Below the pieces are notes generated by a model. It ran no database searches. It was given only the letters and a program-made list of their open reading frames with translations, and was not told the origin of the DNA. Shown here piece by piece: positions 9,972 through 58,671 of a stretch of 64,000 nucleotides of DNA. Each line of letters opens with the position of its first letter. Position 1 is the stretch's first letter. Source of the stretch: Candidatus Poribacteria bacterium (GTDB taxonomy: Bacteria > Poribacteria > WGA-4E > PCPOR2b); contig OZ244587.1 in NCBI GenBank assembly GCA_965218095.1, forward strand, positions 5,760,001 through 5,824,000, given 5' to 3'. The translations under genes and the position numbers were made by a program.

Positions 9972-10177
9972 CGTGGCTGATTAAACTAATCTTCCTCATG
10001 TCCGTTTCCTCATGTCCGTCTTGAAACTTTAAGAAAGTCTTAAGTAAGTTATAATTTCTTTCATCTACATGGATCCGCGCCAGGAGCGGAGTCCCTAGAC
10101 TGAAAGTTAAACAAACTATTTATAAAATACTTATGCCATCTTCCAACCACACCTAATTCTCTCAAGGAGGAACTCTC

Positions 10178-12229: not shown

Positions 12230-15200
12230 ATGCTTGCGGAAATCGCCAAGCAGTCCGGGAATTATGAAACTGCGGCCGACAGCCTCAAGCAGGCGATCCG
12301 GCTTCGCCCGGAAGCCACCGACATCCGCGCGGAGCTGGCGGAGATTTACAAACTTTCGGGCAACCCCCGACAGGCACTTGAGCAGTACTGGCGGTGTTGG
12401 GAGTTGAGCGAGAACATGAACGACAAGCTCGCCTTCGTCAAATCACTCTCCGAGGCATATTACGACTTGGGACGGGGCGGCGAGTTTGAAGAGAAGTTGA
12501 AGCAGATGTCGAAAGTCAACACGTCCAGCATAGGACCCGTCTTAGCATTGGCGGAGGTCTATCAGATGGAAGGCGACCTCCCCAGCGCACGATTCCAACT
12601 GGCGCGGGCATTAGAGCGGAAGCGCGAAAATCCGGATCTGTTGGCGCAACTGGTCGAAATCAGTATCGACCTTGGCGATACTCAGGACGCGCTGACCTAT
12701 CAACAGCGGCTCGTCAAAGCACAACCAGACCCCGCCCATCAACAACGACTCGGCGAGTTGTTGTTCGATGTCGGGCGGGAGCAGGAGGCGATTCAGGCAT
12801 GGACAAAGTTACTGCACGCGAAAAATCAGACGCTTGAGGCAGGGGTCAAACTTGCAACGTTGCTGATTCGGCACGGCCTGCTGGATGAGGCGCTTTCCGC
12901 CCTCGACCGTGCGAGCGAAAAGGTGACGGATGCGAAGACGATTTATCAGGTTGGCGTGGCGTTGGTTGAGATGAATGAATTAGACCGCGCTCGACCGCAC
13001 TTCCAGCAGATTCTGGAGCTATCCAAACCGCCTGAAAACGCGACGCAGAATGTCACAGCCCACTCACCTCGACCGACCTACGGCCCCCCCGGATTCAATA
13101 TGCACAAATTCAATCTCGCACAAAGCCTCGTCTGGCAGATTCAGCGGCAACCGTTTGGGGGCGGAAGCGGACAGGCGTGGATGCCGAACAGTTTTGAGGA
13201 GGCGCAAGCCGGTGCGCTTGTGCAGTTGACTACCATCGCACAGCAGCAGGGAAAACTGGGTGAACTCATCCAGCAATTCGAGGCGGCTGCCGACGCGAAT
13301 CCGAAGGACATCCAGACGCTCGAAACGTTGGCGCAGATCTACACCCTCACGGAGAACACCAATAAGATTAAGGAAATTACCGATCGGCTGATTGCCGCTT
13401 CACCGAACGATCCGGTGTATCAAGGCATGCGGTTGAGTCAGTCAATGCAGCAGAATCTTGACTCTGAAACGGTGAAAAAATACCTCGACGAAATGACCGG
13501 ATTGACGCCCGAAGCACGGCTCTGGTATATCGCAGCATACGCCGGCATGCTCTATGATCAAGGAAGGAAGGCGGACGCCGAAAAACTGTTGGACAAACTT
13601 GACGCTGCAAAAGTGACCGACCTCAACACCGGTTCGATGCTGGTCAGTGCATTCACACAGATGGGCAAGATTGACGTGGCGGAGAAAATCCTCGCCCAAC
13701 TTCCGATTCCAGGGATCCTGGCAGGTCCCCAAACTTCGATGATGGGACCACCATCGCTCGCGCAGCAACGGTGGCGGCAGTATCGTGCCATCTACCAGAC
13801 CCTCGCTACCGCTTATGTCCGCGAAGGAGAGACCGATAAGGCGATTGAAATCTTCTGGACGTTCTTTGACCGTACCAAACCAACAGCGACAAACGCCCGG
13901 CGCGTTGCGACACTCGCATACTCGTCGCACTCCTACAGCGGCTACACACCGCTTTTGTCGAGCTATCCATCGCCGACGACTTACTACAATCAAGCCCGTT
14001 TGGAGTATCTCCAGGGGGGTTTCAGCCAGTTTTGGACGAAGAATCAGCAGGAAGCGTTATACGCCAAATTCCAGACCAAGTTGGATGCCGCTGAAGGCAA
14101 AAACCGCATCTATCCCGGTTTGGCACTGAGTTACTGCTATTGGTGGGAAGGGAAGCGCGACAAAGCGCAGGAGGTCCTCTTGGCGTTGCAGAATGAATTT
14201 CCGGATGATCTCACGCTCAAGCTCAACACCGTTTTCGTCTCAATCCAGACCGGACAACACGGGACGACGCTGGAATTGCTTGATGAACTCGCCGGGGTAG
14301 ACCCGCGAAATCGCCGTCAGTATTATGACCTCTCGCTACAGCTTGCCGCACATATAGGCAACACCGTCAAGGTGCGCGAGTTGATGACGAAGGTGCTGAA
14401 TTCGCCGGTTAGGGTCCGTGAACTTTATCAGTTTTCGCAAAAACTCCAGCAGAGCGGTCTAACACAATACGCCATCGCTGTTGCCAAGAAAGCAATGACT
14501 TTGGCGATGGGGCAACGCGACCCGAATTTCCTGATGGAATTGAGTAGGCACTTAGAGGAGCTCGGTCGGGGGCAGGATGCGGCGCTCATCGCTGAACGCG
14601 CAATGCGTTTCGCCAACCAACGTGACCGGTACGGTCAGACCTTGCACTCGTGGAGTTTCCAGCAGGCGGCGCATCTAGTTGGTCGCTCCAAAGCCGTGCG
14701 AGAGCGCGAACCCCAGTTAGTCGAAGCCGCCGAAAAGAATCCGGATTCATTCCAGACACAGGTCAGATTGGCGACGTTCTACGAAAGCACGAATCAGGTC
14801 AAAAAGGCGGCGGCGGCCTTCGATGCGGCACTCGCCCTGCGTCCCAAGGATAACATGACCCGTCAGCGGTACGCCCAGATGTTGCAGCGTAGTGGGCAAG
14901 CAGCAGATGCCGTAACCCAATACATGACGCTCCTCAAAGATAACCCGAATGCACTCGGTTACAACTATTGGGAGGTGATGGAAACCTTCTTCGCGGCAGG
15001 CAAAGTCGATGAACTGGTTTCGCTAGCGAAGGGGATGATTGCACCATCCGTCGGACAAAACTTCGGCGACAATTTCGCGCAAGATGTGGCACGGCAGTGT
15101 ATCGACAATAACAACCCCAAAGCGGCGGTCGAAATCTACGAAAAGATAATCGAAGTCCAGTCGAATCGGCACAACATGTATACTGACCTAGCGTCCGCCT

Positions 15201-18200
15201 ACGCTGCCGCCGGTGAACGTGAGAAGGCGATCCAGTTCTTGCGCGAAAAGCTGGAAACTGAGGCTGCGAATATTTCGCAAGACCTGTACGCACAAGTGGG
15301 GATTGTATCAAAACTGACCGAGCTCTACAAGGCATCCGGTGAGATAGAAGGCTTGGCGACGGAATATGAGGCCAAACTCGCCGAGAAGCCGGAGGATCCG
15401 TCGTTGCTCTATCTCGTAGCGTCAATGAAGATTGCGGCGAATGACCTCGAAGGGTCGGACGCGCTCGTTAATCAACTGCTTGATGATGAAGCTGTGTCAA
15501 TAAACACAGAGTGGTTGAACGGTTTGGCAGACGCCTACCGCAGCGTCGGTGACCGCGGCCGTGAACTCCGTCTGCTTGAGGCGGGGGCGAAAAATCTCGG
15601 CTCGCAGAATTGGTGGAGACTTTCGGAGACCTACCAGAAACTCGGTACAGCCTATGCCCAAAGGGATGAAAAGGAGAAGGCGAAGGACACCTTCCGAAAG
15701 ATGGGGATGATGCGTCTGATGATGTATGGCGGGGGAGGCGGTGCGTTCTGGCAGAAACAGGGGATTGCCGACCTGTATATGCAGCATGAGATGTGGGACG
15801 ACGCTGAAGCAATGTACACAGAGGTCCTGAATGATCTGTCAGCGCAGCAGTATCATCGTGAACAGGTACAAGAGCGGCTGATGGAGATTCAGCAGCGTCG
15901 TGGTGGGCTTTCGACGACGACCCCAAAAATAGAACAGATGAATATCGGTATACAGCGGGCGATGGCGCAGCAATACATGCAGCGCAATGAACTTGAGAAA
16001 GCGGCGGAACTCTTTAAGGGGCTCATTGAGACGATGCCCGAAGATTTCGGATCCCGCGCACAACTCGCTCAGATCTATTCACGCCAAAACAAACACGATG
16101 CAGCGCTCGTCCAGTGGGAAATTTTGCTGACAGCCGACCCTGAGAACACGCAGTATCAGGATGGACTCGTGAATGCCTACCAGGCCGCAGGCAAGATCGC
16201 CGAATCCCTCAAACTAGCGCAAAAGTACATTGAAGCGGATGCAAGTGGTGTCACCTACGCTCGCCTTGCCCGAATTTACGCCGCGAGGGATCGGGTCGAT
16301 GACGCGATCAAGGCGTATCAAAAAGCGATCAAACTCAGTCCCGGCGATGGGAGGCTTTATCGCGAACTCGCACAGATTCATATGAAAAACGATGACCTTG
16401 ATTCCGCAGAAAAGACCTTTCAGGAAGCCCTGGAATACACCGGACAGGAGTGGGAGCGGCGTAACATTGAACGGCAAATGATAGAGCTCTATCGCCGTCA
16501 AGGCAGGTTGGAGGAGATGTTCCAGAGAGCCGAGGAAAAAGGAACGCTGACTTTCGAGATGCAGCTGGATCGTGCGCAAAACTTCCGCACTCAGGGCGAG
16601 TTGGAAAAGGCTGTGGAAGCCTATAAAAAGGCAATAGACATGACGACACAAAGTTGGGAGCGGACCCGGGTTTCAAACGAGTTGGTGCAGGTTTACGCCC
16701 GACTTGGAGAAAACGAGTTGGCGATCGAACTCTATGAAACGCTGTCGAGGTCGGGCGGCGGTGACGTAAGTATTAGCTTTTTAGGCGGCGGTTTTCAGGT
16801 CATGTTCCCTGGCGACCAAGCCCGTCAAACGTTGATCAACGCCTACAGCAGTCATGACAAACGCGAAGAATTGGCGACCTACCTTGAAAAGAGGCGCGAG
16901 ACAAATCCCGATAATCCGGCGATTCTCGAAATGATTGCGGAGGTTTATCGCAGCCATGGCAACCACGCGAAAGCGGCGGAAAGCTATCAAGCCCTCTGCA
17001 AATTGCAGCCGGGGAACATTCGGAGTTTCTATTATGCTGCCGTGGCTTTTACCCGGAGCGATCAGCCAGAGTTAGCAGAGGAGATGGTGAATCAGGGAGA
17101 GGCAGCACGCTCGACAAGCGTCAGGTGGAAGCAGGATATGTGGCGTTTAGCCGCGCTCGGCAATATCTGTCTTGAAGGGAAGCTATACGAAGCGGCGGTT
17201 ACGCTACTTGAAGACGCGACTGCGCAAAGTGGGCGCTACGGGGGAATGGGCGAGGAACGCCAGAATCTATACCGTATGCTCGGTCAGAGCTACGTGGGTG
17301 CAAAACGCTACGAGGAAGCCGCCCACGCTTATCAGCAGATGAGGAACATCGCCCAGGATGAGGCGGTGCGACGAGAAGCGCTGGAGGCGATACGCAAGGC
17401 GTATAAAGAGGGCGGCATTTACGACAAGCTGGTTGCGGAACGGTTGAAGGTGGCTGAGGCAAATTCCGATGACCCGGACGCCTACTACGCGCTCGCGCAG
17501 ACCTATCAATGGAATGTGATGAATGACGAGGCGATTGCGGCGTATGAACGTGCCGCCGAGTTGAATCCTAATAACACCGTCATCTTAGAACCATTGGTTC
17601 AGCTCTATGATAATGCAGTCCCTGAAAAGGCAAAAACCCTTTATAAACGCCTCATTGAATTGGCGGATACCCCCCACAATCGCCTCCAGAAACGGAGGAG
17701 CTTAGCTAATCTCCACAAACGTTTTGGGGAGATTGATCAAGTTGCTGCGCTGCTGAAAGACGCCGCCATCCATGCCCCAGAGCCGTTCGAACGGGAGATT
17801 GCCCTTCGAGGGCTTTGGAAACTTCAAGAAGAGATATCCCGTCTGCGTCAAGCAAATTTGATGAGCAAGCCCGCGGCTTCCTTTGCCTTGCGAGATCTGA
17901 GCGGCAAAGAAGTCAAGCTCTCTGATTTCAAAGGCAAAGTGGTCATTCTGAACTTCTGGGCAACGTGGTATCCGCCCTGCGTGAGGGAGATGCCACATTT
18001 CATCGCGCTTTACGAAGGGTATAAGGATCAAGGGTTTGCGGTGGTGGGCATCTCCGTCGATCGAGCAGGAGAGAATGTAATCAAGTCTTTCGTCGAGGAA
18101 CATCAGGTGACCTATCCCATCCTCATCGACGATCAGCGTGTGGCACAACGCTACGGTGGTATCTCTTCCGTTCCGACCACCTTCCTCATCAATAGGGAAG

Positions 18201-18277
18201 GAAAAATTGTAAGGCAGTATGTGGGCTACAGAGATAAATCTGTCTTTGAGAAAGACATTAAAGCCCTTCTTGACTAG
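12230..18277 (+). CDS. Giant TPR protein paralog 2, C-terminal part, ending in a TlpA/ResA-type thioredoxin (redoxin) domain
   Basis: Same frame as 10178..12190, and the intervening codons (TVAHSPRNPEGHQ) match gene 1 (VLAHSPRNPKGHQ). Redoxin signature FALRDLSGKEVKLSDFKGKVVILNFWATWYPPC...VPTTFLINREG. Confidence 0.85.
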   Translation: MLAEIAKQSGNYETAADSLKQAIRLRPEATDIRAELAEIYKLSGNPRQALEQYWRCWELSENMNDKLAFVKSLSEAYYDLGRGGEFEEKLKQMSKVNTSSIGPVLALAEVYQMEGDLPSARFQLARALERKRENPDLLAQLVEISIDLGDTQDALTYQQRLVKAQPDPAHQQRLGELLFDVGREQEAIQAWTKLLHAKNQTLEAGVKLATLLIRHGLLDEALSALDRASEKVTDAKTIYQVGVALVEMNELDRARPHFQQILELSKPPENATQNVTAHSPRPTYGPPGFNMHKFNLAQSLVWQIQRQPFGGGSGQAWMPNSFEEAQAGALVQLTTIAQQQGKLGELIQQFEAAADANPKDIQTLETLAQIYTLTENTNKIKEITDRLIAASPNDPVYQGMRLSQSMQQNLDSETVKKYLDEMTGLTPEARLWYIAAYAGMLYDQGRKADAEKLLDKLDAAKVTDLNTGSMLVSAFTQMGKIDVAEKILAQLPIPGILAGPQTSMMGPPSLAQQRWRQYRAIYQTLATAYVREGETDKAIEIFWTFFDRTKPTATNARRVATLAYSSHSYSGYTPLLSSYPSPTTYYNQARLEYLQGGFSQFWTKNQQEALYAKFQTKLDAAEGKNRIYPGLALSYCYWWEGKRDKAQEVLLALQNEFPDDLTLKLNTVFVSIQTGQHGTTLELLDELAGVDPRNRRQYYDLSLQLAAHIGNTVKVRELMTKVLNSPVRVRELYQFSQKLQQSGLTQYAIAVAKKAMTLAMGQRDPNFLMELSRHLEELGRGQDAALIAERAMRFANQRDRYGQTLHSWSFQQAAHLVGRSKAVREREPQLVEAAEKNPDSFQTQVRLATFYESTNQVKKAAAAFDAALALRPKDNMTRQRYAQMLQRSGQAADAVTQYMTLLKDNPNALGYNYWEVMETFFAAGKVDELVSLAKGMIAPSVGQNFGDNFAQDVARQCIDNNNPKAAVEIYEKIIEVQSNRHNMYTDLASAYAAAGEREKAIQFLREKLETEAANISQDLYAQVGIVSKLTELYKASGEIEGLATEYEAKLAEKPEDPSLLYLVASMKIAANDLEGSDALVNQLLDDEAVSINTEWLNGLADAYRSVGDRGRELRLLEAGAKNLGSQNWWRLSETYQKLGTAYAQRDEKEKAKDTFRKMGMMRLMMYGGGGGAFWQKQGIADLYMQHEMWDDAEAMYTEVLNDLSAQQYHREQVQERLMEIQQRRGGLSTTTPKIEQMNIGIQRAMAQQYMQRNELEKAAELFKGLIETMPEDFGSRAQLAQIYSRQNKHDAALVQWEILLTADPENTQYQDGLVNAYQAAGKIAESLKLAQKYIEADASGVTYARLARIYAARDRVDDAIKAYQKAIKLSPGDGRLYRELAQIHMKNDDLDSAEKTFQEALEYTGQEWERRNIERQMIELYRRQGRLEEMFQRAEEKGTLTFEMQLDRAQNFRTQGELEKAVEAYKKAIDMTTQSWERTRVSNELVQVYARLGENELAIELYETLSRSGGGDVSISFLGGGFQVMFPGDQARQTLINAYSSHDKREELATYLEKRRETNPDNPAILEMIAEVYRSHGNHAKAAESYQALCKLQPGNIRSFYYAAVAFTRSDQPELAEEMVNQGEAARSTSVRWKQDMWRLAALGNICLEGKLYEAAVTLLEDATAQSGRYGGMGEERQNLYRMLGQSYVGAKRYEEAAHAYQQMRNIAQDEAVRREALEAIRKAYKEGGIYDKLVAERLKVAEANSDDPDAYYALAQTYQWNVMNDEAIAAYERAAELNPNNTVILEPLVQLYDNAVPEKAKTLYKRLIELADTPHNRLQKRRSLANLHKRFGEIDQVAALLKDAAIHAPEPFEREIALRGLWKLQEEISRLRQANLMSKPAASFALRDLSGKEVKLSDFKGKVVILNFWATWYPPCVREMPHFIALYEGYKDQGFAVVGISVDRAGENVIKSFVEEHQVTYPILIDDQRVAQRYGGISSVPTTFLINREGKIVRQYVGYRDKSVFEKDIKALLD

Positions 18278-23486: not shown

Positions 23487-24356
23487 ATGCGAGAGTATTT
23501 GCGGATTCTTGAACAAATTCCGATTGAATTGAGAGAACCGATAGCAGAGTTAGTGGAGGTTATTGAAAATCGACTCCGTTCTGAATTTAGCGTTACTCGT
23601 CAGGATTTTAATCGTTTGGAGAACGTTGTCGCCGAACTGGCTCAAATGCAGAAGGAAACCCGAGTCGAACTGACAGAGATCGCCCAAGCGCAAAAGCGAA
23701 CCGACCAGACAATGGCGGAACTCGCTCAAGCGCAGAAAGAAACTCGAGCCGAACGGAACGAGTTAGTTCAAGCACAAAAGCGAACCGACCAGGCAATGGC
23801 GGAACTCGCTCAAGCGCAGAAAGAAACTCGAGCCGAACGGAACGAGTTAGTTCAAGCGCAAAAGCGAACCAACCAGGCAATGGCGGAACTCGCTCAAGCG
23901 CAGAAGCGAACCGAAGAGCAGGTTGCTAGATGGGCTCAAGAACAACAAAGCTTTAGGCGGACTTTCGACTCACAAATCGGTGGGCTTGGTGCCCGCTGGG
24001 GCGTTCAAACTGAGGCTTCATTCCGTAACGCAATGGACAATATTTTGGAAGACCTCGGCTTCCGAGTTGAGCAATACCTCGAGCGAGACTTAGGGGGGAA
24101 GGTACATGGACATCCCGATCAGGTCGAACTGGACGTTGTGATCCAGGATGGAAAACTGATCGTCATTGAGATTAAATCCTCAATGAGCAAATCGGATGTC
24201 TATATATTTGAGCGGAAGGTCGAGTTTTACATAGAAACGGAGGACAGAACCGTCGATCGCAAATTGATCGTCTCTCCATTTGTTGATACCGGTGTAATGA
24301 TTGTCGCTGACAAACTTGGAATAGAGGTTTTTACAGATATTAACGAAGTTTCATAA
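23487..24356 (+). CDS. DUF3782-family coiled-coil protein with PD-(D/E)xK nuclease-like C-terminal domain
   Basis: LAQAQKRT coiled-coil repeats; LGARWG; ELDVVI...IEIKSS; RKLIVSPFVD. Confidence 0.8.
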   Translation: MREYLRILEQIPIELREPIAELVEVIENRLRSEFSVTRQDFNRLENVVAELAQMQKETRVELTEIAQAQKRTDQTMAELAQAQKETRAERNELVQAQKRTDQAMAELAQAQKETRAERNELVQAQKRTNQAMAELAQAQKRTEEQVARWAQEQQSFRRTFDSQIGGLGARWGVQTEASFRNAMDNILEDLGFRVEQYLERDLGGKVHGHPDQVELDVVIQDGKLIVIEIKSSMSKSDVYIFERKVEFYIETEDRTVDRKLIVSPFVDTGVMIVADKLGIEVFTDINEVS

Positions 24357-26978: not shown

Positions 26979-27971
26979 ATGAACATGACAAATCATGTCG
27001 TAGACGGTCTTCCTGATAATCCGGTATATACGACTGAATTGGGGCTGGCATACCTAGGTGATAGCCTTGAACTGATGAAATGCTTGCCGAGTGAAAGCGT
27101 AAATCTGGTTTTAACTTCCCCACCATTTGCCTTGACCAGTAAGAAGGAGTATGGCAACAAGGACGCTGGAGAGTATGTTGATTGGTTTCTTCCATTCGCC
27201 TCCGAGATCCGAAGAATCATCACTGAAGATGGTTCTTCGGATCTCGACCTTGGCGGGGCATACCTCCCAGGCCATCCGGTCAGAAGCATTTATCAATACG
27301 AACTATTAATCGCTTTAGTCCGGGAAATCGGATTTTACTTGGCTCAGGAATTTTTTCATTATAATCCAGCGAGATTACCTGCTCCCGCCGAGTGGGTCAA
27401 TGTAAGGCGAATCCGGGTAAAAGATTCGGTGAATGTGGTTTGGTGGTTGTCTAAAACTGAATATCCTAAAGCGAACAACCGAAACGTCCTCTGCCCCTAC
27501 ACCGAAGCCATGAAGCAGTTACTTAAGAAAGGCTATCGTCCTCAGAAGAGACCGAGTGGACATGATATAACCCACAAATTCAACCAAGATAATAACGGTT
27601 CAATCCCCCCGAATTTGTTAGAATTGGGTAATAATGATTCAAATAGTAACTACATGCGAGAATGTAAGAAAAACGGTATTAAACCGCATCCTGCACGATT
27701 TCCGCGAAAATTTCCTGAGTTCTTTATTAAATTTTTAACAGACACGGGAAACCTTGTTGTTGATCCTTTTGCCGGATCAAATACAACTGGATATGTGTCC
27801 GAATATCTAGAACGTCAATGGTTAGCGTTTGAAATCGAAGAAAGTTATATACGGGCAAGCCACTTTAGATTTGAACTAGATTTATACCATTATGATGTTG
27901 CGGATTATGATACGGACGTGGAACCTCAACTGAAATTATTCTCGGCAAGTGAAGACTATGGCGATTCTTAG
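26979..27971 (+). CDS. Beta-class N4-cytosine DNA methyltransferase, M.PvuII-like
   Basis: TSPPFAL..KKEYGN (motif IV) precedes HPARFP and [10 protein letters not shown] (motif I). Many segments recall M.PvuII ([33 protein letters not shown]). Confidence 0.9.
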
Positions 27972-28944
27972 CAAAAAGGCACTTCTAAACCACATTGTGG
28001 GAGCTGTCCATGGATGTGATTGGAACGTTTTATATATCTCTACAGCACATCCGTTCAGGCTTAATGTCTTTCGGGATGACGTCAACTATCGAATCAAGAT
28101 CTATATTTGGAACTTGACACACGGAGGTGGTTCAGCAAGGCCAGGAGATGAATATAGAATACAAGTCAAGGTCAAAAAAGCTTTTGGCGAAGAAACTGGT
28201 TGGACAACGTTAATTTTGGGGTGGTGGGATGAAGTTGGTGTTTTCGCCGGTTTCGATCTTCGTAAGCATTATGGACTACCTGGATGGTCATCACCAATAC
28301 AGATAAAAGAGGAAGCCTTGCGACATGCCTACATCAACGGATTCGCGGCTTCAGATAAAGGTAATCAAGAAATCGCTATGGCGTTCCGACCTGATTTTTT
28401 TATCCATTATTTGCAAAATCTCCAACTATTACATGACTTCGGGCAATCACCAGAAGACTTGGAAACTTTGAACACAGTCTCTGAAAACCCCGAAATCAAC
28501 GAACAGGACATTCCAATTACAAATCCGGAACGAAAAACGGCAGTCATCACTCTAAAAAAGAAACTGCGGGATATTAGTTTCAGAAAACGGGTTTTGACAG
28601 CTTATAATTCGAGATGTGCCATCTGTGGCATTCAACTAAACTTGGTTGAAGCCGCCCATATCGTACCTGTCCAGGAAAGTGGTACTGAAGAAACTGCTAA
28701 CGGTTTAGCATTATACGCCCTTCACCACAAAGCCTACGATAGTTCAATAATTACTGTATTGGAAGACTATCGTGTCAAATTAAGTGATGCGAAGGTATTA
28801 CAGCTAAAGCAGAACGGTTTGGAAGATGGTTTGGAAGATTTTAAAAGCAACTTGCGTCCAATCATTCACTTACCCCCAGCCATATCCGATAGACCTCATA
28901 TTAAGTATATCAGGTTAGCCAACCGAATCCGTGCATGGAGTTGA
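27958..28944 (+). CDS. HNH endonuclease with N-terminal methylase-associated (MTaX1-like) domain
   Basis: Overlaps the MTase stop. N-terminal [19 protein letters not shown]; C-terminal [17 protein letters not shown]...EAAHIVP...[14 protein letters not shown]. Confidence 0.8.
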
Positions 28945-39187: not shown

Positions 39188-40042
39188 TCATTCGCCAAAT
39201 TTCGGGGCATAAAACCGGTCCTGATATTCCCCACACGCTTTCTTTTTTTGGTACTCCCATTCATAAGGCGATTCGCGCATCCGTGTTGGGCCGTTCCGCA
39301 CATCGAATCCGATGTTAGCCGCCTTGGGATAGTGGCTATAAATCATCAGGCGGCGCGGTCTGTTGGAAGCATTCGGCCTGGAATTGTGAACTAGCAGGAC
39401 GTGAAAAAGCAGGACCGAACCCGCAGGCGCCAGTACATCGATGCCGTCATCGAAGTCAATGAGATGGGGAAGCACCTGCAAACCGTTGTCCGTAGGCTCA
39501 TGTTCGAGGTATTCCCTGTGGCTCCCCGGCCAGACATGGATAGGCCCGGAATCCTCCGTGCATTCGTCGAAGCAGATTGCCGAGGAGAGGATCGACTGTG
39601 GATAGTTTTGTGCGCGGTAGTACGCCCAATCGTTATGGACAGGGAAACGGTCATCGATCTTCTGGGCTTCGACAGCGGGTATTGGCTCTGGCAGTGGTTC
39701 CTTGTAGTTCAGCTTCTCCTCCATCAACACCGGTTCATCATTCATAACCTGCCGCATGGGCCCGAGTAATCGGTCATTATTTGAGACCTGAGTCAGGTAT
39801 AGTGAGAGATCATTAATTGGCTGGATTTTCCGAACCATCTGCTGACCATGGGAAAGTTCGAGGATATCCAGACGACTGCTTCTGCGCTGATTTGCCAACG
39901 AGGAATTGATGATGAGTTCAAGAATACGGTCTGCTTCTTCCCGCATCCTTTCAACCTCATCTGCTGTAAACGCTTCCGGCAAAACCAGATAGCCTTGTTC
40001 ATGAAATTGATCGAGTTGTTTTTTCGTTAACTCGGTGCCCAT
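39188..40042 (-). CDS. Phytanoyl-CoA dioxygenase (PhyH) family Fe(II)/2-oxoglutarate dioxygenase
   Basis: RBS AAGGAG; LT..QLDQFHEQGYLV; HxD (VHNDW); GP.HVWPGSH; distal His VHNS.PN...RR. Confidence 0.92.
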   Translation of the reverse strand: MGTELTKKQLDQFHEQGYLVLPEAFTADEVERMREEADRILELIINSSLANQRRSSRLDILELSHGQQMVRKIQPINDLSLYLTQVSNNDRLLGPMRQVMNDEPVLMEEKLNYKEPLPEPIPAVEAQKIDDRFPVHNDWAYYRAQNYPQSILSSAICFDECTEDSGPIHVWPGSHREYLEHEPTDNGLQVLPHLIDFDDGIDVLAPAGSVLLFHVLLVHNSRPNASNRPRRLMIYSHYPKAANIGFDVRNGPTRMRESPYEWEYQKKKACGEYQDRFYAPKFGE

Positions 40043-40347
40043 AGGATTCTCCTTATTTATGGCAGCAATGATCTGGGGAAATGTTGGTTTCAAACGATTT
40101 GGCAGATTGCTTTGCGATAGATCGAAAGTCGTCGCGTTCAAGTTTTTTCGCCACAACAAATGGGGATTCCACCGTTTTCATCGGAAAATTATAGCAAATT
40201 GAGCAGGATTCGACAATCCAAAAAATAGGACATCAACATGGGATCATGCTGTTACAGCAGCACGGCGCAAACGAATAGATTGCCTACTCGTTGAAAACAA
40301 GGGTGACAACATATTGAATCTAGCCGCACGTCGTCGCCTTTTTTCAT

Positions 40348-40375
40348 TTGATTGTGAATGAAATCGTGCTATAAT
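40348..40375 (+). promoter_or_regulatory. Putative sigma70 promoter of the ATPase/helicase operon
   Basis: TTGATT-16 bp-TATAAT with extended -10 TG, ~50 bp before ATG 40427. Confidence 0.6.
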
Positions 40376-40426
40376 TTCCATAATCCCTATCAGAAATTAA
40401 AGTGAAATGAAACACGAGGTGTCAAT

Positions 40427-41273
40427 ATGGATCTGACCCAGCTCATCGGGGAATGGAGGACGTCAAAAAAGCAGACAGAATCTGTTTTGAGGCTGCTTCG
40501 GGAAATCGCCCGTCTGGAGCAAAATCGGATGCAGCATCTGCCCCAATTGAGGAAACGATTGACTCAGCTTGATTCCTTTGTCAACCAACTCAACCGGACC
40601 CCACATCTGCAAGATGGACTGCGGAATTGGCTGAATGGGTATCGACAAGAACTTGCGGATGCAGCGGAGGAGTTCAAAAAACGGTTTGGGATTGTGCTTG
40701 AAGAGGAGTTGACAAAAAGAGGGCTTTCGCTTTCAGGATAATATCCTCAACTGAAAACGGGGCTGTGTACGATCGAACTCGACTTTGAGAGGGAACGAGT
40801 GACGGTTTGGTATGGTCCCAAACAGGAGCGTCTTTTTCAGTATGGTCTTGAGGCGGCGGAAGTAGCGAACAACGTTGAAAAAATCAGGGGGCGCCTTGGG
40901 TGCGGTTTAGCCACAGAAAAATTCCACCAGAAATTACAGGAGGCTTATGCCCGCGCTACAGGTGGGGTGGTGGGCAAACCTGCCCCAATCGTTGAGGTTC
41001 TAAGGGAACTTGCCTACCTCCTCCAGGATTCACAGTTTCTTCAAGATCCAAGGCAGGAGAACTATAAGGGCTACGATCGTGCGGATTTCAGCTATGACCT
41101 TTATCTGCTCCGTCAATCGGCTTCGGACATACTTGTTGACAAGCGGCCGCATCTGGTTGTGGCGACCTGAGCTCGCGCCAGAAGACAACGAGATTTCCTC
41201 TGGGTGCCTGATAATGAAAGCGGTAGGGGGACGACCTATTCCCACCTGAAATTTCGAGGAGGTAACGCAATGA
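40427..41273 (+). pseudogene. Unknown ~280-aa helical protein, first gene of ATPase/helicase operon; two in-frame stops
   Basis: ORFs 40427, 40799 and 41204 share one frame, broken by TAA 40739 and TGA 41168; protein-like sequence continues across both. Confidence 0.7.
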
Positions 41274-42527
41274 GTGAACTTCGCCTGGACGCTGCGCGAC
41301 GTATCATTGAGACCGTCGGCGCCAACGGTATCCCACCGGAACATGGATTTCAGTTTTTCACGGCTGGCCTGGAGCCTTACCTGACGGTCATTGATAAAGA
41401 GTATCTCTCCACGTTCATTCAGGGGGGAGGGGCCACCTTTAAGATCGTCATTGGCGTTTATGGCGGTGGAAAGCCCCACTTTCTTTACTCTGTTCGTGAC
41501 CTTGCCTGGAAGCATAACTTTGTCGTGTCGCATGTCTCCCTTTCTCCAGAGGAAAGCCCATTCCATCGGTTAGATCTGGTGTATAAAGTCATCGTGGGTG
41601 GATTTGACGCCCCCGCTAACTGCCGATGAACTGCTCTCCGGATACGAACAGGGAATGGCGAGTTTTCTGCGCACTTGGTACAGCCAGAAGTTTCAGGAAT
41701 TGAGCAGCACAGGTGTCTCAACGGAGGCGCTGCATGAGGAATTGTTGAACGGCGTGGAAACCATTGAGAGAATTGAAAGCATCAGCTTTGCCCGTGCAGT
41801 CAAAGCCGCCTTCCGTGCACTGACAGACCATCGGAAAGAGGATTTCATCAATATCTGCTTGTGGTTGAGTGGGCAGGGGTATGACCGGAGGATGCACGGG
41901 ACTTATGGCATCTACCAGCCGATTGATCGAACAACGGCATTGACCACGATCCGATCGCTAGTGCAGTGGATAAGACAAATTGACTACTCCGGTCTGGTGA
42001 TTCTTTTAGATGAGGCCGAGCGGGTGCCTTCCTTGAGCAGTCGGCAGCGGGTGCCTTCCTTGAGCAGTCGGCAGCGGGAACAACACCTGAGCAATCTACG
42101 GGAAGTGATTGATGCGTGTGGGCACACCAGCTTCGGCTGCGCGATGATTTTTTACGCCGTTCCTGACGAGAATTTCTTGGAGGGACGCACACAAGTCTAC
42201 GAAGCATTGCGACAACGGGTCGCTACCGTTTTTGAAACATTGAATCCATCGGATGTCCGAATCGATCTCAATCAAGTTAGCACCTCACCGCTCGACTTTT
42301 TACACGAAGTTGGGGACAAATTGGCTTTCGTTTACCAGACCGCTTATGACCATGAGTTTGAGGTAGCTGCCCTTGAGGAAACCATCACAATGACGGCGGA
42401 AACAGTGTATGAGCAACGCTTCGGTGACATTGGGTACAAACGGCTCTTCGTCCAGACGCTTATTCGAGGACTTCATTTTCTACGCCAGGAGGGTAGTTCA
42501 CCTCAAGTCAAGGATTTGCAGGTGTAG
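41270..42527 (+). pseudogene. BrxD/DUF2791-like P-loop ATPase 1, frameshifted near 41603
   Basis: RBS GGAGGT; FKIVIGVYGGGK(P)HF Walker A with T>P; SPEESPFHRLDLVY; Walker B LVILLDEAE in the shifted frame; 27-bp internal duplication. Confidence 0.75.
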
Positions 42528-42539
42528 GAGGAATCTGCC

Positions 42540-44002
42540 ATGCAAGAAAGCGTCATCCATCATAAAAAATACGGGTAAGGCGTCGTCAAAGGCACGTGCT
42601 TCAAAGGCTTCCAACTACAGGTGGCATTCGACACCGGACTGACGCGATGGGTGCGGCTGGATGAATTGACGGACACAACAGAAACGCCTCCGCCGAGTCC
42701 TCCGATGCCTGGCATCGGCGTTCCCCCAAACATTGAACGCTTCAAATCCCGACGTATGGTTGAAGCCTTTCGACTCGGCATTGTCCCCTACGATTGCGTC
42801 AGTGATTTCATTTTCGGACGCGCAGAAGAAATCCAGATTTTAACAGACTGGCTGGACCAACCCGACAGCAATGCAATGCTTACAGTGGGGGAGTATGGAA
42901 CAGGCAAAACGCATCTCCTTCACTATGCCTATGTCTGAGCGTTACAGGAAGGCTTCGCCGTTGTTTTAGTCGAGATGGATGGAAACGAATGCCCCTTTCA
43001 TAAACCCAAGCAGGTCTACAGCTACCTAGTCTGAACGCTTCAATTCCGTTCCGCAAAACATGGGAAGACACGGCTTGCCGGGTTTCGGGATGTACTCAAG
43101 GAGGCATTCGCTTGTTCCGCTTTCGAGGAGCATGTTTACTTCAAATGGCTAATCGATAAGACATTGGATGAGACGTTATGGGATTGGATCGAAGCGCGTG
43201 ATTACAGTCTCCGACCGCCGAATCTCTACCAGCAGACCAAAATGAGGGCCATCCGACGTGATTTTGACGCGGTTGAGCGGAATTTCCAACAGATGGAGGA
43301 GATCTTAAAGGAGATCCAACAGCTTGTTGATGGGGGTGATCTGAAGTTACCGGGAATTTACGCCAGATTGCCGGGATTGTATCCATATTATAAGGCAGCG
43401 AGTATCTACTGTTACCTTCTTTCCGCGCTCGGTTGGGCAGCGAAAGAGATTTTGGGACTCAAGGGGTTTCTGTTAATCTTCGACGAAGCGGAAACGGTCG
43501 ACAGATACGACAACCTTTATCAGGTGGACAAGAGCCAGAACTTCCTCAAGGCACTGATTCGCACAGCAAATAACGATGCGCATCTGTCCGGCCCACCCAG
43601 GGAGGCGGGACTGGACTACTGCCGCGTGGGTATTGCCCATCCATTCTGTTCCTCTATAAGCAGCTGTCCGGACTGAAGCTGCTTTTCGCTTTGACACCGA
43701 TTGACAGGCTCAAGGGGTTTCCAGAATTGCAACAGGCTGAACGAATTGATTTACAGCCGTTAACAGAATCGGTAAAACAAGCGCTCTTCCAGAATATCTT
43801 TCTCCTTTACAAGCGGTCGTATGACGGTCTCAAAGCAGATCTCCCTCTTGACATGATAGGAGCGGTTTTCCAACAAGTAACGCGCAGAAGTGAACTGACA
43901 CGGCTGTTCGTCAAAGGTTCTGTTGAAGTGTTAGACTTGATTCGGCGTGCACAGGGGCGCAGTCTGAGTTTCACCGAGGTACTGGGTGAGGTTTTTGAAT
44001 GA
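42540..44002 (+). pseudogene. BrxD/DUF2791-like P-loop ATPase 2 with N-terminal Tudor/SH3-like domain; three stops and one frameshift
   Basis: RBS AGGAGG, ATG 42540; stops at 42576, 42936, 43032; EAFRLGIVP...FGRAEEI; Walker A GEYGTGKTH; Walker B LLIFDEAE; frameshift ~43640 into LKLLFALTP. Confidence 0.75.
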
Positions 44003-45582
44003 TTGATGTCACAAAAGTTGAGGCGATTCATCGCCGATTGAAACGGGCCTGGATGCCGTTCTTCACTCGGTTCGGTCAGCTCACGCTGGTCCAGATCGAA
44101 ACGATTCCGAAGATTCTGGATGGCGCTAATGTCGTTGTGGCTTCACCGACAGCTTCAGGTAAGACAGAATCCGTCATCGCTCCCGTTTCGGAACACTTTC
44201 TTGCAGAATGTTGGGAGGGTATGGCGATTTTGTATGTCGTTCCAACTCGCGCCCTTGCCAACGATACGTTGGCGCGCATTGAAGGCCCGCTTGGGGACAT
44301 GGGACTGACAGCGGCGCTCAAGCACGGCGATAACCCTTCGCTGCCAGCAGATAGCCTGCCCAATTGTCTGATTACTACGCCCGAATCTTTAGACTCGCTG
44401 ATCTGTCGTTGCCCGCAAGCGTTTGCAACCTTGCAGACTGCCATCCTGGATGAGATTCATCTACTGGATAACACCTGCTGCGGCGACCACCTGCGGCTAC
44501 TCTTATGGCGGTTGCGCAAGTTGGTATCCGACCGATCTGACCGTCAGGAAGGTCACAGTTTCTCCACCGATCTCCTGTCGGCGACCCTTTCTGCGCCTCA
44601 CCAAATCGCCCGAAGGTATACAACCGACTTTGAGGTCGTGACGGTGGCCAGCAGCCGGGAAATCGATTATTACCTGATTGATTCTCACCAGGGAGCTTAT
44701 GATTTGGCGCGAGCGCGGGGGTGGCGGAAACTACTCATCTTTTGCAATCTGCGTGAGTCTGTTGAACAGGTTGCGGCTGATCTTGCCCCATTGTGGACCC
44801 CCTATCCTGTCATGGTTCATCATGGCAGCCTCAACCGTCGCGTGCGTGAAGAAGCTGAGACCGTCATGAAGGAAGCAGATATCGCGGTCTGTGTGGCAAC
44901 ATCCACGCTGGAAATCGGCATCGATATTGGTGATGTAGACCTCATTGTGCTCGCCGAAGCGCCCTGGAGTATCTCTGCGCTGCTTCAACACATTGGGCGG
45001 GGTAACCGCAGAGCGGGGCGCATTCATGCCGCGGCGGTAGCAACCACTGAGGAGGAGGAAGCGCTGCTTTCAGCGATGTTCAAGATGGCCGCGACAGGCA
45101 TGCTTCCAGCCGAGTCCTATGCGCCGGACCCTTCTGTTGCGGTTCAGCAGATCTGCTCGTATCTGTATCAACACCCCCAGGGGGCGTCAGAAGCAGAACT
45201 ACTTGAGCTCGTTTCTCCCCTGTGTTTAGCGAACGAATCCAGGCGGATTTGGGGGCACTTGCAACAACGCGGTTTTCTTGAGTGGTACACAGGACGTGGG
45301 TTCGCTTCTCCAAGGTTGATGGGTATGGGGGCAAAGGGGTACATTCCCGATGCACAAACCTGCAGTGTCATAGACGTTGATTCAGGCGGGGAAATCGGAA
45401 CCATCTCCGGCGTGTTTGATAACGTGTTTATTCTGGGCCAAAGAAGCTGGCAGATTGTCTCTCAGAAAGCGGGCATTATCAAGACCCGCCGCTTTCATGG
45501 GGAGGCAGAAACCCCTTTTTTTGAAAGACACAAGGGAATTGGCGCTTTCCACCATCTTTTGCCATCAAATTTGAAAAGGTAA
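43999..45582 (+). CDS. Lhr-like SF2 DEAD/DEAH helicase (BrxHI/SngC-like), probably degenerating
   Basis: ATGA overlap with the ATPase; SPTASGKTES, PTRALAND, TTPESLD, LDEIH, LSAT, HHGSL, ATSTLEIGIDIGDVD, QHIGRGNR. Confidence 0.85.
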   Translation: MIDVTKVEAIHRRLKRAWMPFFTRFGQLTLVQIETIPKILDGANVVVASPTASGKTESVIAPVSEHFLAECWEGMAILYVVPTRALANDTLARIEGPLGDMGLTAALKHGDNPSLPADSLPNCLITTPESLDSLICRCPQAFATLQTAILDEIHLLDNTCCGDHLRLLLWRLRKLVSDRSDRQEGHSFSTDLLSATLSAPHQIARRYTTDFEVVTVASSREIDYYLIDSHQGAYDLARARGWRKLLIFCNLRESVEQVAADLAPLWTPYPVMVHHGSLNRRVREEAETVMKEADIAVCVATSTLEIGIDIGDVDLIVLAEAPWSISALLQHIGRGNRRAGRIHAAAVATTEEEEALLSAMFKMAATGMLPAESYAPDPSVAVQQICSYLYQHPQGASEAELLELVSPLCLANESRRIWGHLQQRGFLEWYTGRGFASPRLMGMGAKGYIPDAQTCSVIDVDSGGEIGTISGVFDNVFILGQRSWQIVSQKAGIIKTRRFHGEAETPFFERHKGIGAFHHLLPSNLKR

Positions 45583-57004: not shown

Positions 57005-58006
57005 ATGGCAAAAGCACCGCGCAACCGAACAATAACACTGTCGGATCGGGAGAGAGAAAACTATCGGCAGCATTTATTAAAAATCTCCAGTCCTGTTTCA
57101 GTGGATGGGGTACTGAACAAAGTTATTAACCAAGATCTCTTTGATGTCCTCGATTTTCTCCCATCACGTTTTGTTGATCTCCTCTTTCTCGATCCACCGT
57201 ATAATTTGACAAAGCATTTCAATACCCGTTCTTTTCAGCAGATGCCTGTTGAGGGGTACATGGAATGGCTCGAATCTTGGCTCTCCAAAATGATTAGGCT
57301 GCTGAAGCCGAGGGCGTCAATCTACATCTGTGGAGACTGGCGGTCTTCTGCTGCGATTCATCTCGTTTGCGAAAAATATCTAATCGTCAGAAACCGGATC
57401 ACCTTTGAAAGGGAGAAAGGACGCAGGGCGAAGAAGGATTGGAAAAACAACTCTGAAGATATCTGGTTCTGCACCGTTTCAAACGATTACTATTTTGACT
57501 CAGAAGCGGTACAACTAAAGCGGCAAGTCATCGCGCCATATTGGGAAGATGGGGAACCGAAGGATTGGAAAGCAGAGGTGGATGGGAACTTTCGGCTAAC
57601 GGGGCCATCAAATATCTGGACAGATATAACGATTCCTTTTTGGTCAATGCCGGAAAATACGCCCCATCCGACGCAAAAGCCCGAAAAACTGCTGGCAAAG
57701 CTCATGCTCGCAAGTTCCAGAGAAGGAGACCTCGTTTTTGATCCCTTTGCCGGGAGTGGAACAGCCGGAGTTGCAGCGAAAAAATTAAAGCGAAATTTCG
57801 CTATGGTGGAGATTGATGAGGAATATTGCCTTTATGCCGAGAAAAGGTTGCAAACGGCTGAGACCAACAGAACAATCCAAGGGTACACCGATGGGGTTTT
57901 CTGGGAAAGAAACACGTTGCGAGATATGAAGATAAAGCGGCGTAAGAAACCAAATACTGAAGGGACATTAGAATTATTTACAAACATTGGGCAGGGTCAA
58001 AAGTGA
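57005..58006 (+). CDS. Beta-class amino (N6A/N4C) DNA methyltransferase of a type II R-M system
   Basis: DPPYNL before HPTQKPEKL and DPFAGSGT. Confidence 0.92.
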   Translation: MAKAPRNRTITLSDRERENYRQHLLKISSPVSVDGVLNKVINQDLFDVLDFLPSRFVDLLFLDPPYNLTKHFNTRSFQQMPVEGYMEWLESWLSKMIRLLKPRASIYICGDWRSSAAIHLVCEKYLIVRNRITFEREKGRRAKKDWKNNSEDIWFCTVSNDYYFDSEAVQLKRQVIAPYWEDGEPKDWKAEVDGNFRLTGPSNIWTDITIPFWSMPENTPHPTQKPEKLLAKLMLASSREGDLVFDPFAGSGTAGVAAKKLKRNFAMVEIDEEYCLYAEKRLQTAETNRTIQGYTDGVFWERNTLRDMKIKRRKKPNTEGTLELFTNIGQGQK

Positions 58007-58671
58007 AGAGTCGAATTTTTCACACGCGTGTGTATGAGGAGATTGAAGGCAAAATTAAGGCGTTTCTCAACGGCTACCCTGACTTCCTCACTCCAGACAC
58101 GGTTGCAAGCACGAGAGCGACAGGGGACGCAATTCAGCATATTCTGGAAGAGAACTTTGCGCAAATCATTGGAGATTTTTCCAAAGAATATTCCGCGAAT
58201 TTTGCGCGAAGGGCGATGGCTGATTTAGCTTTTACGGATCAAGACGACTTGTATTATGTTGTAGATGTAAAAACTCATCGATTGGAAACGAAATTTAACA
58301 TGCCGAATCTCACTTCTGTAGAAAGGTTAGCACGCTTTTATGAAGATGATCAGAATTACTTTGTGCTGTTGATGATAGCCTATACCATATCCGGCGTTCG
58401 CATTAATGTGGAGAAAGCTCATTTTGTGCCAATTGAATTTTTATCTTGGGACTGCCTAACAATCGGTGCGTTAGGTTGGGGACAAATACAAATTGCCAAC
58501 GCAAGCAATATTGTTATAAACCAAGGATATTCCAGAAAAAAATGGATGCTAGCGTTATGCGACGTGTTAAGCGAATTCTATCCTCGCGAAATCGAGAAAG
58601 TAAAGGACAGAATCAATTACTTTAAGCGGGTAAGAGAGCGATGGAAAGAAAAAGCGGATATTTGGGAATAA
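58003..58671 (+). CDS. Putative type II restriction endonuclease, PD-(D/E)xK fold
   Basis: GTGA overlap with the MTase; MADLAF...VVDVKT catalytic-like motif; AT-richer than flanks. Confidence 0.7.
   Translation: MKSRIFHTRVYEEIEGKIKAFLNGYPDFLTPDTVASTRATGDAIQHILEENFAQIIGDFSKEYSANFARRAMADLAFTDQDDLYYVVDVKTHRLETKFNMPNLTSVERLARFYEDDQNYFVLLMIAYTISGVRINVEKAHFVPIEFLSWDCLTIGALGWGQIQIANASNIVINQGYSRKKWMLALCDVLSEFYPREIEKVKDRINYFKRVRERWKEKADIWE

Follow-up and report, generated by a model that had tools for sequence, protein, structure and literature searches.

What did a cluster of short, scattered open reading frames (ORFs) in a poribacterial contig once encode, and does it descend from a system that already has a name? 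The stretch analysed, here called the window, comprises 64,000 nucleotides of Candidatus Poribacteria bacterium (assembly GCA_965218095.1, contig OZ244587.1, positions 5,760,001 to 5,824,000 of the forward strand). At 40427-45582 on its + strand the fragments resolve into four closely spaced genes, A, B, C and D, spread over three reading frames and encoding a protein of no known family, two paralogous ATPases and a short helicase. This is probably the pseudogenised copy of a conserved and horizontally spread operon, an undescribed relative of Shango and of the BrxD-BrxHI pair of type 2 bacteriophage exclusion (BREX), whose likely targets would be phages or other mobile DNA.

Four genes in one order

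A preliminary description of the window, made from its letters alone, had proposed that the short ORFs reassemble into four tightly coupled genes with a ribosome-binding site before each start, an ATGA overlap at 43999, and a near-consensus promoter ahead of them. The genes and their coupling are as described: purine-rich motifs resembling ribosome-binding sites lie upstream of all four starts, and the stop of C and the start of D share the ATGA. The promoter fared less well. The site is present (Table 1), but the region holds six such sites against 4.3 ± 2.5 in shuffled sequence, and because this is no excess over expectation the site is suggestive only and not significant by itself. Rfam and tRNA scans of the window returned no match.

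The pieces are real genes. Nine of them were compared by tblastn with 30 loci that had been retrieved, by means of patterns from the alignment of A, from contigs representing one genome per species, and intact relatives were matched with E-values down to 5e-154 for B and 0.0 for D. That the four genes belong together, as first proposed, is seen in 23 of the 30 loci, where A-B-C-D stand in one order and on one strand (one of the 23 is cut within D by the end of its contig). Four loci end at a contig edge before D is reached (L001, L007, L022 and L027), and three lack D in DNA that is present, L010 and L029 holding A-B-C only and L002 holding A and the start of B. In complete loci the intact ORFs measure about 280, 410, 433 and 523 aa, their stops and starts overlap or nearly abut, and the second ATPase, C, is always present. 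Examples of intact loci are L003, from Ca. Brocadia pituitae (AP021856.1 2959246-2980061), and L026, from Ca. Chloroploca asiatica (NZ_LYXE01000036.1).

According to the record labels the operon ranges over at least 11 bacterial phyla and the archaea. Labels among the loci include Poribacteria, Planctomycetota, Myxococcota/Deltaproteobacteria, Atribacterota, Chloroflexota, Acidobacteriota, Bacillota, Cyanobacteriota, Ignavibacteriota, Tectomicrobia and WOR-3, as well as two archaeal bins. One bin label is doubtful, because B of L004 (CAYHPR010000029.1), labelled Micrarchaeota, is 94% identical to B of Ca. Brocadia. The closest relatives of the window genes are themselves poribacterial, namely L005 for D (64% identity) and L001 for the pieces of A and B, window B being 69-80% identical to the intact copy in L001. 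Every named relative of the host GspE ATPase is likewise labelled Poribacteria, and an identical GspE protein occurs in a second assembly of the species. A second poribacterial genome (L002:9986-11100) has an intact A followed by about the first 70 codons of B but neither C nor D, and represents an independent case of operon loss within the same phylum. Two of the four poribacterial loci, and the window in addition, are decayed or incomplete.

Table 1. Coordinates of the genes, signals and lesions of the window copy, followed by defence genes found near the operon in related loci.
Feature	Position	Strand	Remarks
Promoter-like site	40348..40375	+	TTGATT-16 nt-TATAAT with upstream TG; 10/12 consensus matches
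Gene A (pseudogene)	40427..41269	+	About 280 aa; ATG 40427; single frame
In-frame TAA in A	40739..40741	+	Column mostly Gln in relatives
In-frame TGA in A	41168..41170	+	Column mostly Arg in relatives
Gene B (pseudogene)	41270..42527	+	BrxD-type ATPase (DUF2791, ORC/Cdc6-like), full-length; ATG 41270, TAG 42525-42527
Walker-A change in B	41474..41476	+	GGGKT to GGGKP (Thr to Pro); Thr invariant in 19/19 relatives
Frameshift in B	about 41604..41606	+	T run; shift from frame 2 into frame 0; TGA 41627 closes the earlier frame
Tandem duplication in B	42019..42078	+	27 nt, perfect, 2.2 copies; adds 9 residues right after Walker-B DEAE
Gene C (pseudogene)	42540..44002	+	Divergent BrxD paralogue, ORC/Cdc6-like AAA+ type; ATG 42540, TGA 44000-44002
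In-frame TAA in C	42576..42578	+	Codon 13 of C; relatives vary here
In-frame TGA in C	42936..42938	+	Directly past Walker A; aligned relatives have Arg
In-frame TGA in C	43032..43034	+	Two aligned relatives have Arg or Gln
Frameshift in C	about 43632..43636	+	Shift from frame 0 into frame 2; TGA 43674 closes the earlier frame
Gene D	43999..45582	+	Open 527-codon frame; short Lhr/BrxHI/SngC-like superfamily 2 helicase
Defence neighbour in L003			PDC-S70
Defence neighbours in L008			Complete type I restriction-modification system; PDC-M30 genes
Defence neighbours in L009			SNF2 HmaA/DrmD-like helicase; Mrr_N gene overlapping the D stop
Defence neighbour in L017			Mokosh-like helicase-nuclease
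Region of the operon in L019 (cyanobacterial contig)	28-11878		Operon intact, between PglX and PglZ-BrxL of a type 1 BREX locus
Defence neighbours in L023			HNH, NERD-helicase, PDC-S68
Defence neighbours in L024			Type II restriction-modification pair
Defence neighbours in L028			NTase-HEPN pair; E1/JAB genes

The encoded proteins

The preliminary description had seen in the four products a protein of about 280 aa belonging to no known family, two divergent ATPase paralogues of the DUF2791 type and an Lhr-like helicase, and this account of the proteins is borne out in each part by profile and structure searches. Two named systems supply the reference points. Shango, as outlined in excerpts of two reports, consists of a TerB protein, an ATPase and a DEAD/DEAH helicase (10.1101/2022.05.11.491447, 10.1101/2022.11.11.516204). 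BrxD is characterised in part of another source as an ORC/Cdc6 AAA+ ATPase that forms a linked dyad with BrxHI and is proposed to act as a helicase loader (PMC12839542), and a portion of a 2026 survey of BREX treats it as specific to type 2.

Read-through pieces of window B match the Pfam family BrxC_BrxD (DUF2791, PF10923) at 7e-16 and 2e-21 (58.6 and 76.6 bits, the gathering cut-off being 22.2 bits), as well as the PADLOC models for BrxD and SngB, and the first piece of window C reaches 27.7 bits, weaker than B. Intact relatives score higher in the same family, at 158-173 bits for B and 64-74 bits for C, the latter over the N-terminal 100 residues (the P-loop region) only. Intact B relatives all match PADLOC BrxD (2.5e-42 to 4e-42) more strongly than SngB (4e-30, 1e-29 and 3e-21). 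Measured against the NCBIfam BrxD equivalog NF033438, with its cut-off of 350 bits, B relatives (144.7 and 144.9 bits) and C relatives (63 bits) remain below. The B and C families are full-length paralogues (hhalign probability 99.9%, E 2e-31, 338 columns), and Walker A and Walker B are invariant in both.

A structure model of C gives 120 PDB matches at E ≤ 1e-3 in Foldseek, with ORC4 (7tji_D, 1e-5) and Orc1/Cdc6 (2qby_B, 4e-5) among them; the best structural matches of its AAA+ domain include ORC4, Cdc6, archaeal Orc1/Cdc6 and TnsC. The resemblance to ORC/Cdc6 and TnsC lies in the modelled fold and in the arrangement of two paralogous ATPases adjoining a helicase, which recalls loader logic. 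C differs from these proteins in that it lacks a winged-helix origin-binding domain, does not match the solved structures at sequence level, and stands in an accessory operon.

In front of the ATPase domain, all 12 aligned C sequences share a 40-residue N-terminal motif with an invariant His, two Gly, Val and Phe. A profile of the first 65 residues of C gave seven matches among PDB sequences, six of them C-terminal Tudor domains of UvrD/PcrA; the Tudor entries matched were 7egs (0.0014), 6yi2 (0.0015), 7egt (0.007), 5dma (0.25), 9dqs and 4c2t. The model of C, with a predicted local distance difference test score (pLDDT) of 84.8, has a four-strand barrel at residues 5-39 and a disordered linker at residues 46-63, followed by the AAA+ domain. 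The profile match and the small modelled beta barrel, with the linker behind it, recall the UvrD/PcrA Tudor domain, which sits at the C-terminus of a superfamily 1 helicase, whereas here it would occupy the N-terminus of an AAA+ ATPase. Because Pfam alone gave no confirmation, the assignment as a UvrD/PcrA-type Tudor-like domain is regarded as likely but not established. In the portions available of three studies, the Tudor domain of PcrA and UvrD binds RNA polymerase, and PcrA suppresses R-loops (PMC5397179, PMC8318588, PMC7585439).

Window D contains the Pfam domains DEAD and Helicase_C and matches PADLOC BrxHI at 2e-65 and SngC at 1.5e-52. Its intact relatives, 518-547 aa long, match SngC at 2.5e-70 to 1.9e-72 (profile positions 21-558 of 720) and BrxHI at 1e-67, BrxHI being equal to or above SngC in two of three. 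D covers only the first 520-560 positions of the BrxHI and SngC profiles, which have 698-720, and is without the last 160-180 or so. The nearest solved structures are 5v9x and 7lhl (E about 1e-26), which we take to be Lhr entries, and a weak WH_Lhr match (E 0.006) was found in one of three D relatives. The best NCBIfam matches, to a ligase-associated DEXH helicase and to PRK13767, reach 163-183 bits against cut-offs of 849-850. D is therefore like Lhr and the Lhr-core proteins, which are helicases of DNA damage and of RNA:DNA hybrids, in its nearest structures, and differs from them in length (about 520 aa against 877-1508, 5v9x having 877) and in occurring always with A, B and C; it falls short of the Lhr equivalog score and of the Lhr-core domain set of RecA1, RecA2, winged helix and domain 4.

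Gene A belongs to a family without known relatives. Its read-through translation has 92 relatives, most of 270-290 aa, none of which contains a Pfam domain and nearly all of which are named 'hypothetical'; those that are full-length span 98-100% of the translation and are 29-60% identical to it. When 1.84 billion representatives were searched with a profile of A, 851 clusters matched at E ≤ 1e-3, and at E ≤ 1e-30 there were still 332. The motifs WYGPKQE, RADFSYDL and DFLWVP, picked out in the window copy from the start, fall on the most conserved columns of the family alignment. These columns are rich in aromatic residues and glycine, and because they show no obvious acid/histidine catalytic set they give a hint that A is not an enzyme.

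The structure of an A relative, modelled from 69 sequences with a pLDDT of 91.5 and a predicted template modelling score of 0.79, consists of a long helical hairpin (residues 3-97) and an alpha/beta domain. Foldseek found no match to this model at E ≤ 1e-3 in the PDB, where the weak matches are helical hairpins, or in the viral BFVD library, and the ESM Atlas returned only the unnamed clusters of A itself. Sequence searches agree. Three intact relatives matched no family in Pfam or PADLOC; two of these three, compared with NCBIfam, likewise matched none, with two sub-threshold coiled-coil matches in one of them. Window A pieces against Pfam and PADLOC, and the A profile against PDB sequences, gave coiled-coil noise only. 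Neither the window pieces nor the three relatives match TerB/SngA or any other named component, and tblastn of plasmid and phage collections gave no match to A. Fused forms of 535-2000 aa were not found either, which is weak evidence. A predicted complex of A and B scored 0.17 against a mark of 0.32, which speaks neither for nor against binding. Four longer variants (P0180, P0197, P0228 and L028:2377-3477), of about 360-470 aa, have an N-terminal extension in which a helix-extended-helix motif of Rho_N/SAP-like type is inserted (E 1e-5 to 6e-4, one of the four above the Pfam cut-off). Motifs of this type usually bind nucleic acid, and their presence in four of four longer variants hints that A may do so.

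Immunity or genome maintenance

The surroundings of the operon bear on its function. Neighbours were scanned at 16 loci, roughly one per lineage, in the form of 106 ORFs within 7 kb of the operon; 14 other loci were left out as redundant or short. Strong and specific PADLOC matches stand beside the operon in eight of the 16 (Table 1), and in L026 an integrase lies directly upstream. We infer a defence function for A-B-C-D from these neighbours together with the kinship of its proteins to Shango and BREX components. An immune role is preferred to a housekeeping one because defence genes adjoin the operon in half of the loci, because one copy is inserted into a BREX locus, and because the distribution is patchy and prone to decay; the patchy loss seen in the window and in L002 fits accessory immunity.

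If the operon is an immune system, B and C would together form an ATP-driven recogniser or loader for D, or otherwise control it, and D would unwind or strip nucleic-acid intermediates of the invader, for example R-loops or replication forks. The Tudor-like N-terminus of C could tether the machine to RNA polymerase or to a partner with the same docking motif. A would fill the place that the TerB protein has in Shango, as a non-enzymatic sensor or adaptor that possibly binds nucleic acid.

The alternative that survives best, unlikely on present evidence yet to be taken seriously, is a genome-maintenance module, that is, an RNA-polymerase-associated helicase machine for R-loops or transcription-replication conflicts that was lost here as dispensable. 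A role in R-loops or DNA stress remains the main rival because of the Lhr and UvrD/PcrA affinities: D is Lhr-like, and the N-terminus of C resembles a Tudor domain that excerpts of two studies link to RNA polymerase binding and R-loop suppression (PMC5397179, PMC8318588). Several further observations weigh against immunity, and some of them directly favour maintenance. No nuclease or toxin effector is recognisable in the operon. No clear defence neighbour lies within 7 kb in eight of the 16 loci (L002, L005, L006, L011, L021, L025, L026 and L030), and seven Terriglobia loci have one stable chromosomal context in common, which has the appearance of a useful housekeeping function passed on vertically. 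PADLOC matches at 1e-10 were given by 22 of the 106 neighbour ORFs and by three of 30 window ORFs, a comparison that is a crude yardstick and not a proper control. In the window itself the operon is flanked by PhyH and LysR genes, metabolic or regulatory in kind. The Tudor match of C, on which the docking step would depend, is marginal (E about 1e-3), and a lenient Pfam scan of its N-terminal 65 residues gave nothing significant (best E 0.07-0.16 in two of nine segments; PcrA_UvrD_tudor at E 0.15 in one of nine). As for novelty, the system may already bear a name in current releases of DefenseFinder or PADLOC.

What speaks against the maintenance module is the distribution and the company of the operon. 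It is spread patchily over phyla and domains, with copies lost or decayed in the window and in L002; it stands within a BREX locus in L019; restriction-modification genes, an integrase or other defence helicases adjoin it in L008, L009, L017, L023, L024 and L026; and among named proteins those closest to B and D are components of defence systems. The wording first chosen for its role, 'anti-phage or DNA-stress', remains appropriate.

A bolder form of the immune reading, speculative and rather doubtful, would make the operon a new class of immunity that watches transcription. The Tudor-like domain would dock B and C on RNA polymerase, the two ATPases would load D on the R-loop or template of the invader, and A would sense the trigger; D so placed would abort infection, and A would represent a new fold. 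If true, the module would work without a nuclease or toxin and would be common to bacteria and archaea.

Should A-B-C-D prove to be an immune system of any kind, a widespread and unrecognised relative would join the poorly understood group of Shango and BrxD-BrxHI. The A family comprises hundreds of clusters at 50% identity in bacteria and archaea, mostly in uncultured lineages, which are outside the reach of expression screens in E. coli or Bacillus. The ORC-like ATPase pair, the possible RNA polymerase docking domain and the confidently modelled A would offer handles on ATPase-helicase systems that lack a nuclease.

Two observations on individual neighbours may be recorded here. In L019 an RNase III-like gene (6074-6814) begins 5 nt past D and was inserted together with the operon. 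Genes with an Mrr_N domain, found at the N-terminus of restriction enzymes, follow the operon in two unrelated lineages (L009:5604-6164 and L017:8945-9970); because the start of the L009 gene and the D stop overlap, that gene may represent a fifth component specific to its lineage.

Relation to known systems and decay of the window copy

Could the operon instead be a degraded remnant of Shango or of type 2 BREX, and thus a known system? This explanation, now largely refuted, has in its favour that B matches SngB and BrxD and that D matches SngC and BrxHI. With Shango the operon shares its make-up of a small first gene followed by an ATPase of the DUF2791/BrxD type and a helicase resembling Lhr, an order that recalls the arrangement given in part of one report (10.1101/2022.11.11.516204); B matches SngB at 4e-30 and D matches SngC at 2.5e-70, and no nuclease effector is evident in either system. 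A, however, is not TerB. It belongs to a family without any model, and its helical hairpin and alpha/beta domain have no PDB match. The operon has four genes against three, the extra one being the divergent ATPase with the Tudor-like N-terminus, which stands between B and D in every complete locus, and its helicase has about 520 aa against the 720 positions of the SngC profile.

The likeness to the BrxD-BrxHI pair of type 2 BREX consists in an ORC/Cdc6-type AAA+ ATPase tightly linked to a Ski2/Lhr-like helicase; B matches BrxD best in PADLOC and Pfam, and BrxHI ranks first or second among the matches of D. The differences are several. PglX, PglZ, BrxC and PglW are missing from the window and from 15 of the 16 loci, and the sole BREX neighbour, in L019, is a type 1 set of PglX, PglZ and BrxL. 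B remains under the NCBIfam BrxD cut-off (145 against 350 bits), and D is without the C-terminal Lhr-CTD-like part, some 160-180 profile positions. The preliminary description had likewise seen no TerB and no pglX, pglZ or pglW, and among the scanned window ORFs of at least 120 aa (34 in one scan and 30 in another) there is no Pfam or PADLOC match to PglX, PglZ, PglW, BrxC or TerB. On these sequence comparisons the operon is filed neither as Shango nor as BREX, because of its non-TerB A, its second, Tudor-like ATPase, its truncated helicase and the absence of the BREX core. Full-text literature searches brought up no account of a four-gene system of the BrxD-BrxD-helicase kind, and none appeared in the portion of the 2026 BREX survey cited above. 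Novelty was judged against PADLOC v2.0.0, Pfam and NCBIfam, none of which has a model for A.

The window copy is clearly inactivated and non-functional, and it is of value in pointing to the family. The tally given at the outset, of five in-frame stops with two or more frameshifts, was exact, and the claim that the operon is inactivated in this genome stands, as there are several breaks in each of A, B and C, and D is the sole gene of the four with its frame still open. At least three of the five stops (40739, 41168 and 42936) lie at columns with Gln or Arg in most relatives. Further lesions can be added to those first listed: the loss of the stop of A, whose frame runs directly into the ATG of B (41270), the Walker-A change and the 27-nt duplication in B (Table 1), and, in D, a 4-residue deletion near 45340 with several substitutions at family-conserved positions. 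Counting the deletion, window D deviates from its family at 12 of 140 near-invariant columns, compared with 2-4 of 142-144 in its three closest relatives, up to 11 of 146 in distant bacterial D and 19-20 in two archaeal ones. Faster evolution of window D finds no support in the tree, where its end branch measures 0.37 against a median of 0.38.

That the breaks are sequencing or assembly errors, or reflect an unusual genetic code, and that the genes are intact in the organism is very improbable: the frameshift in B does lie in a short T run, a typical site of long-read error where an assembly error is possible in principle, but five nonsense codons, a 27-nt duplication, a Walker-A missense change and the deletion in D are atypical of such errors, and the other genes of the window are whole under table 11. 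Among these are unbroken frames of 3322 and 2015 codons and about thirty further intact genes, which shows that TGA and TAA act as stops in this sequence and that its quality is good. An alternative code and programmed frameshifting were rejected in view of the same frames and of intact relatives, which show no frameshift at places matching the window breaks. For annotation the lesson is that a decayed defence operon vanishes into short ORFs, and the decayed or incomplete poribacterial copies may inform on the turnover of immunity genes in that phylum.

Window C also carries an in-frame insertion of about 45 residues (about 43230-43370), helix-like and rich in charged residues, which is not in the aligned L003 and L005 sequences. 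A PhyH-family dioxygenase gene lies upstream of the operon and divergent from it in the window (39188-40159, - strand), and another lies downstream of the operon and on its strand in the Terriglobia loci (L011:15156-15956, + strand). PhyH was considered as a fifth component and set aside: identity between the two proteins is only 24%, their genes are placed differently and on different strands relative to the operon, and the association is probably coincidence.

Elsewhere in the window the sole defence-like genes form two small methylase modules 11-12 kb from the operon. The first (26979-28944) encodes a type II-like N6/N4 DNA methylase (MTase_II, 7e-124) followed by an MTaX1-HNH protein, has a GC fraction of 0.42-0.43 against about 0.51, and lies between a MoxR ATPase gene and DUF58/BatA/VWA genes; it looks like an inserted restriction-modification-like module. 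The second (57005-58671), with a GC fraction of 0.44-0.46, sits in a type II secretion/pilus gene cluster and comprises another N6/N4 methylase (MTase_II, 1e-63) and, overlapping it, an ORF of 222 aa that belongs to no family and could be the restriction partner of the methylase. At 23487-24356 a 289-aa protein with DUF3782 and a PD-(D/E)XK nuclease domain (PDDEXK_10) is followed by a 502-aa ORF without a family. Two giant tetratricopeptide-repeat proteins complete the picture, one of more than 3322 aa with a Laminin_G_3 domain (3-9971) and one of 2015 aa (12230-18277) whose C-terminal AhpC/TSA-redoxin domain makes it an unusual fusion.

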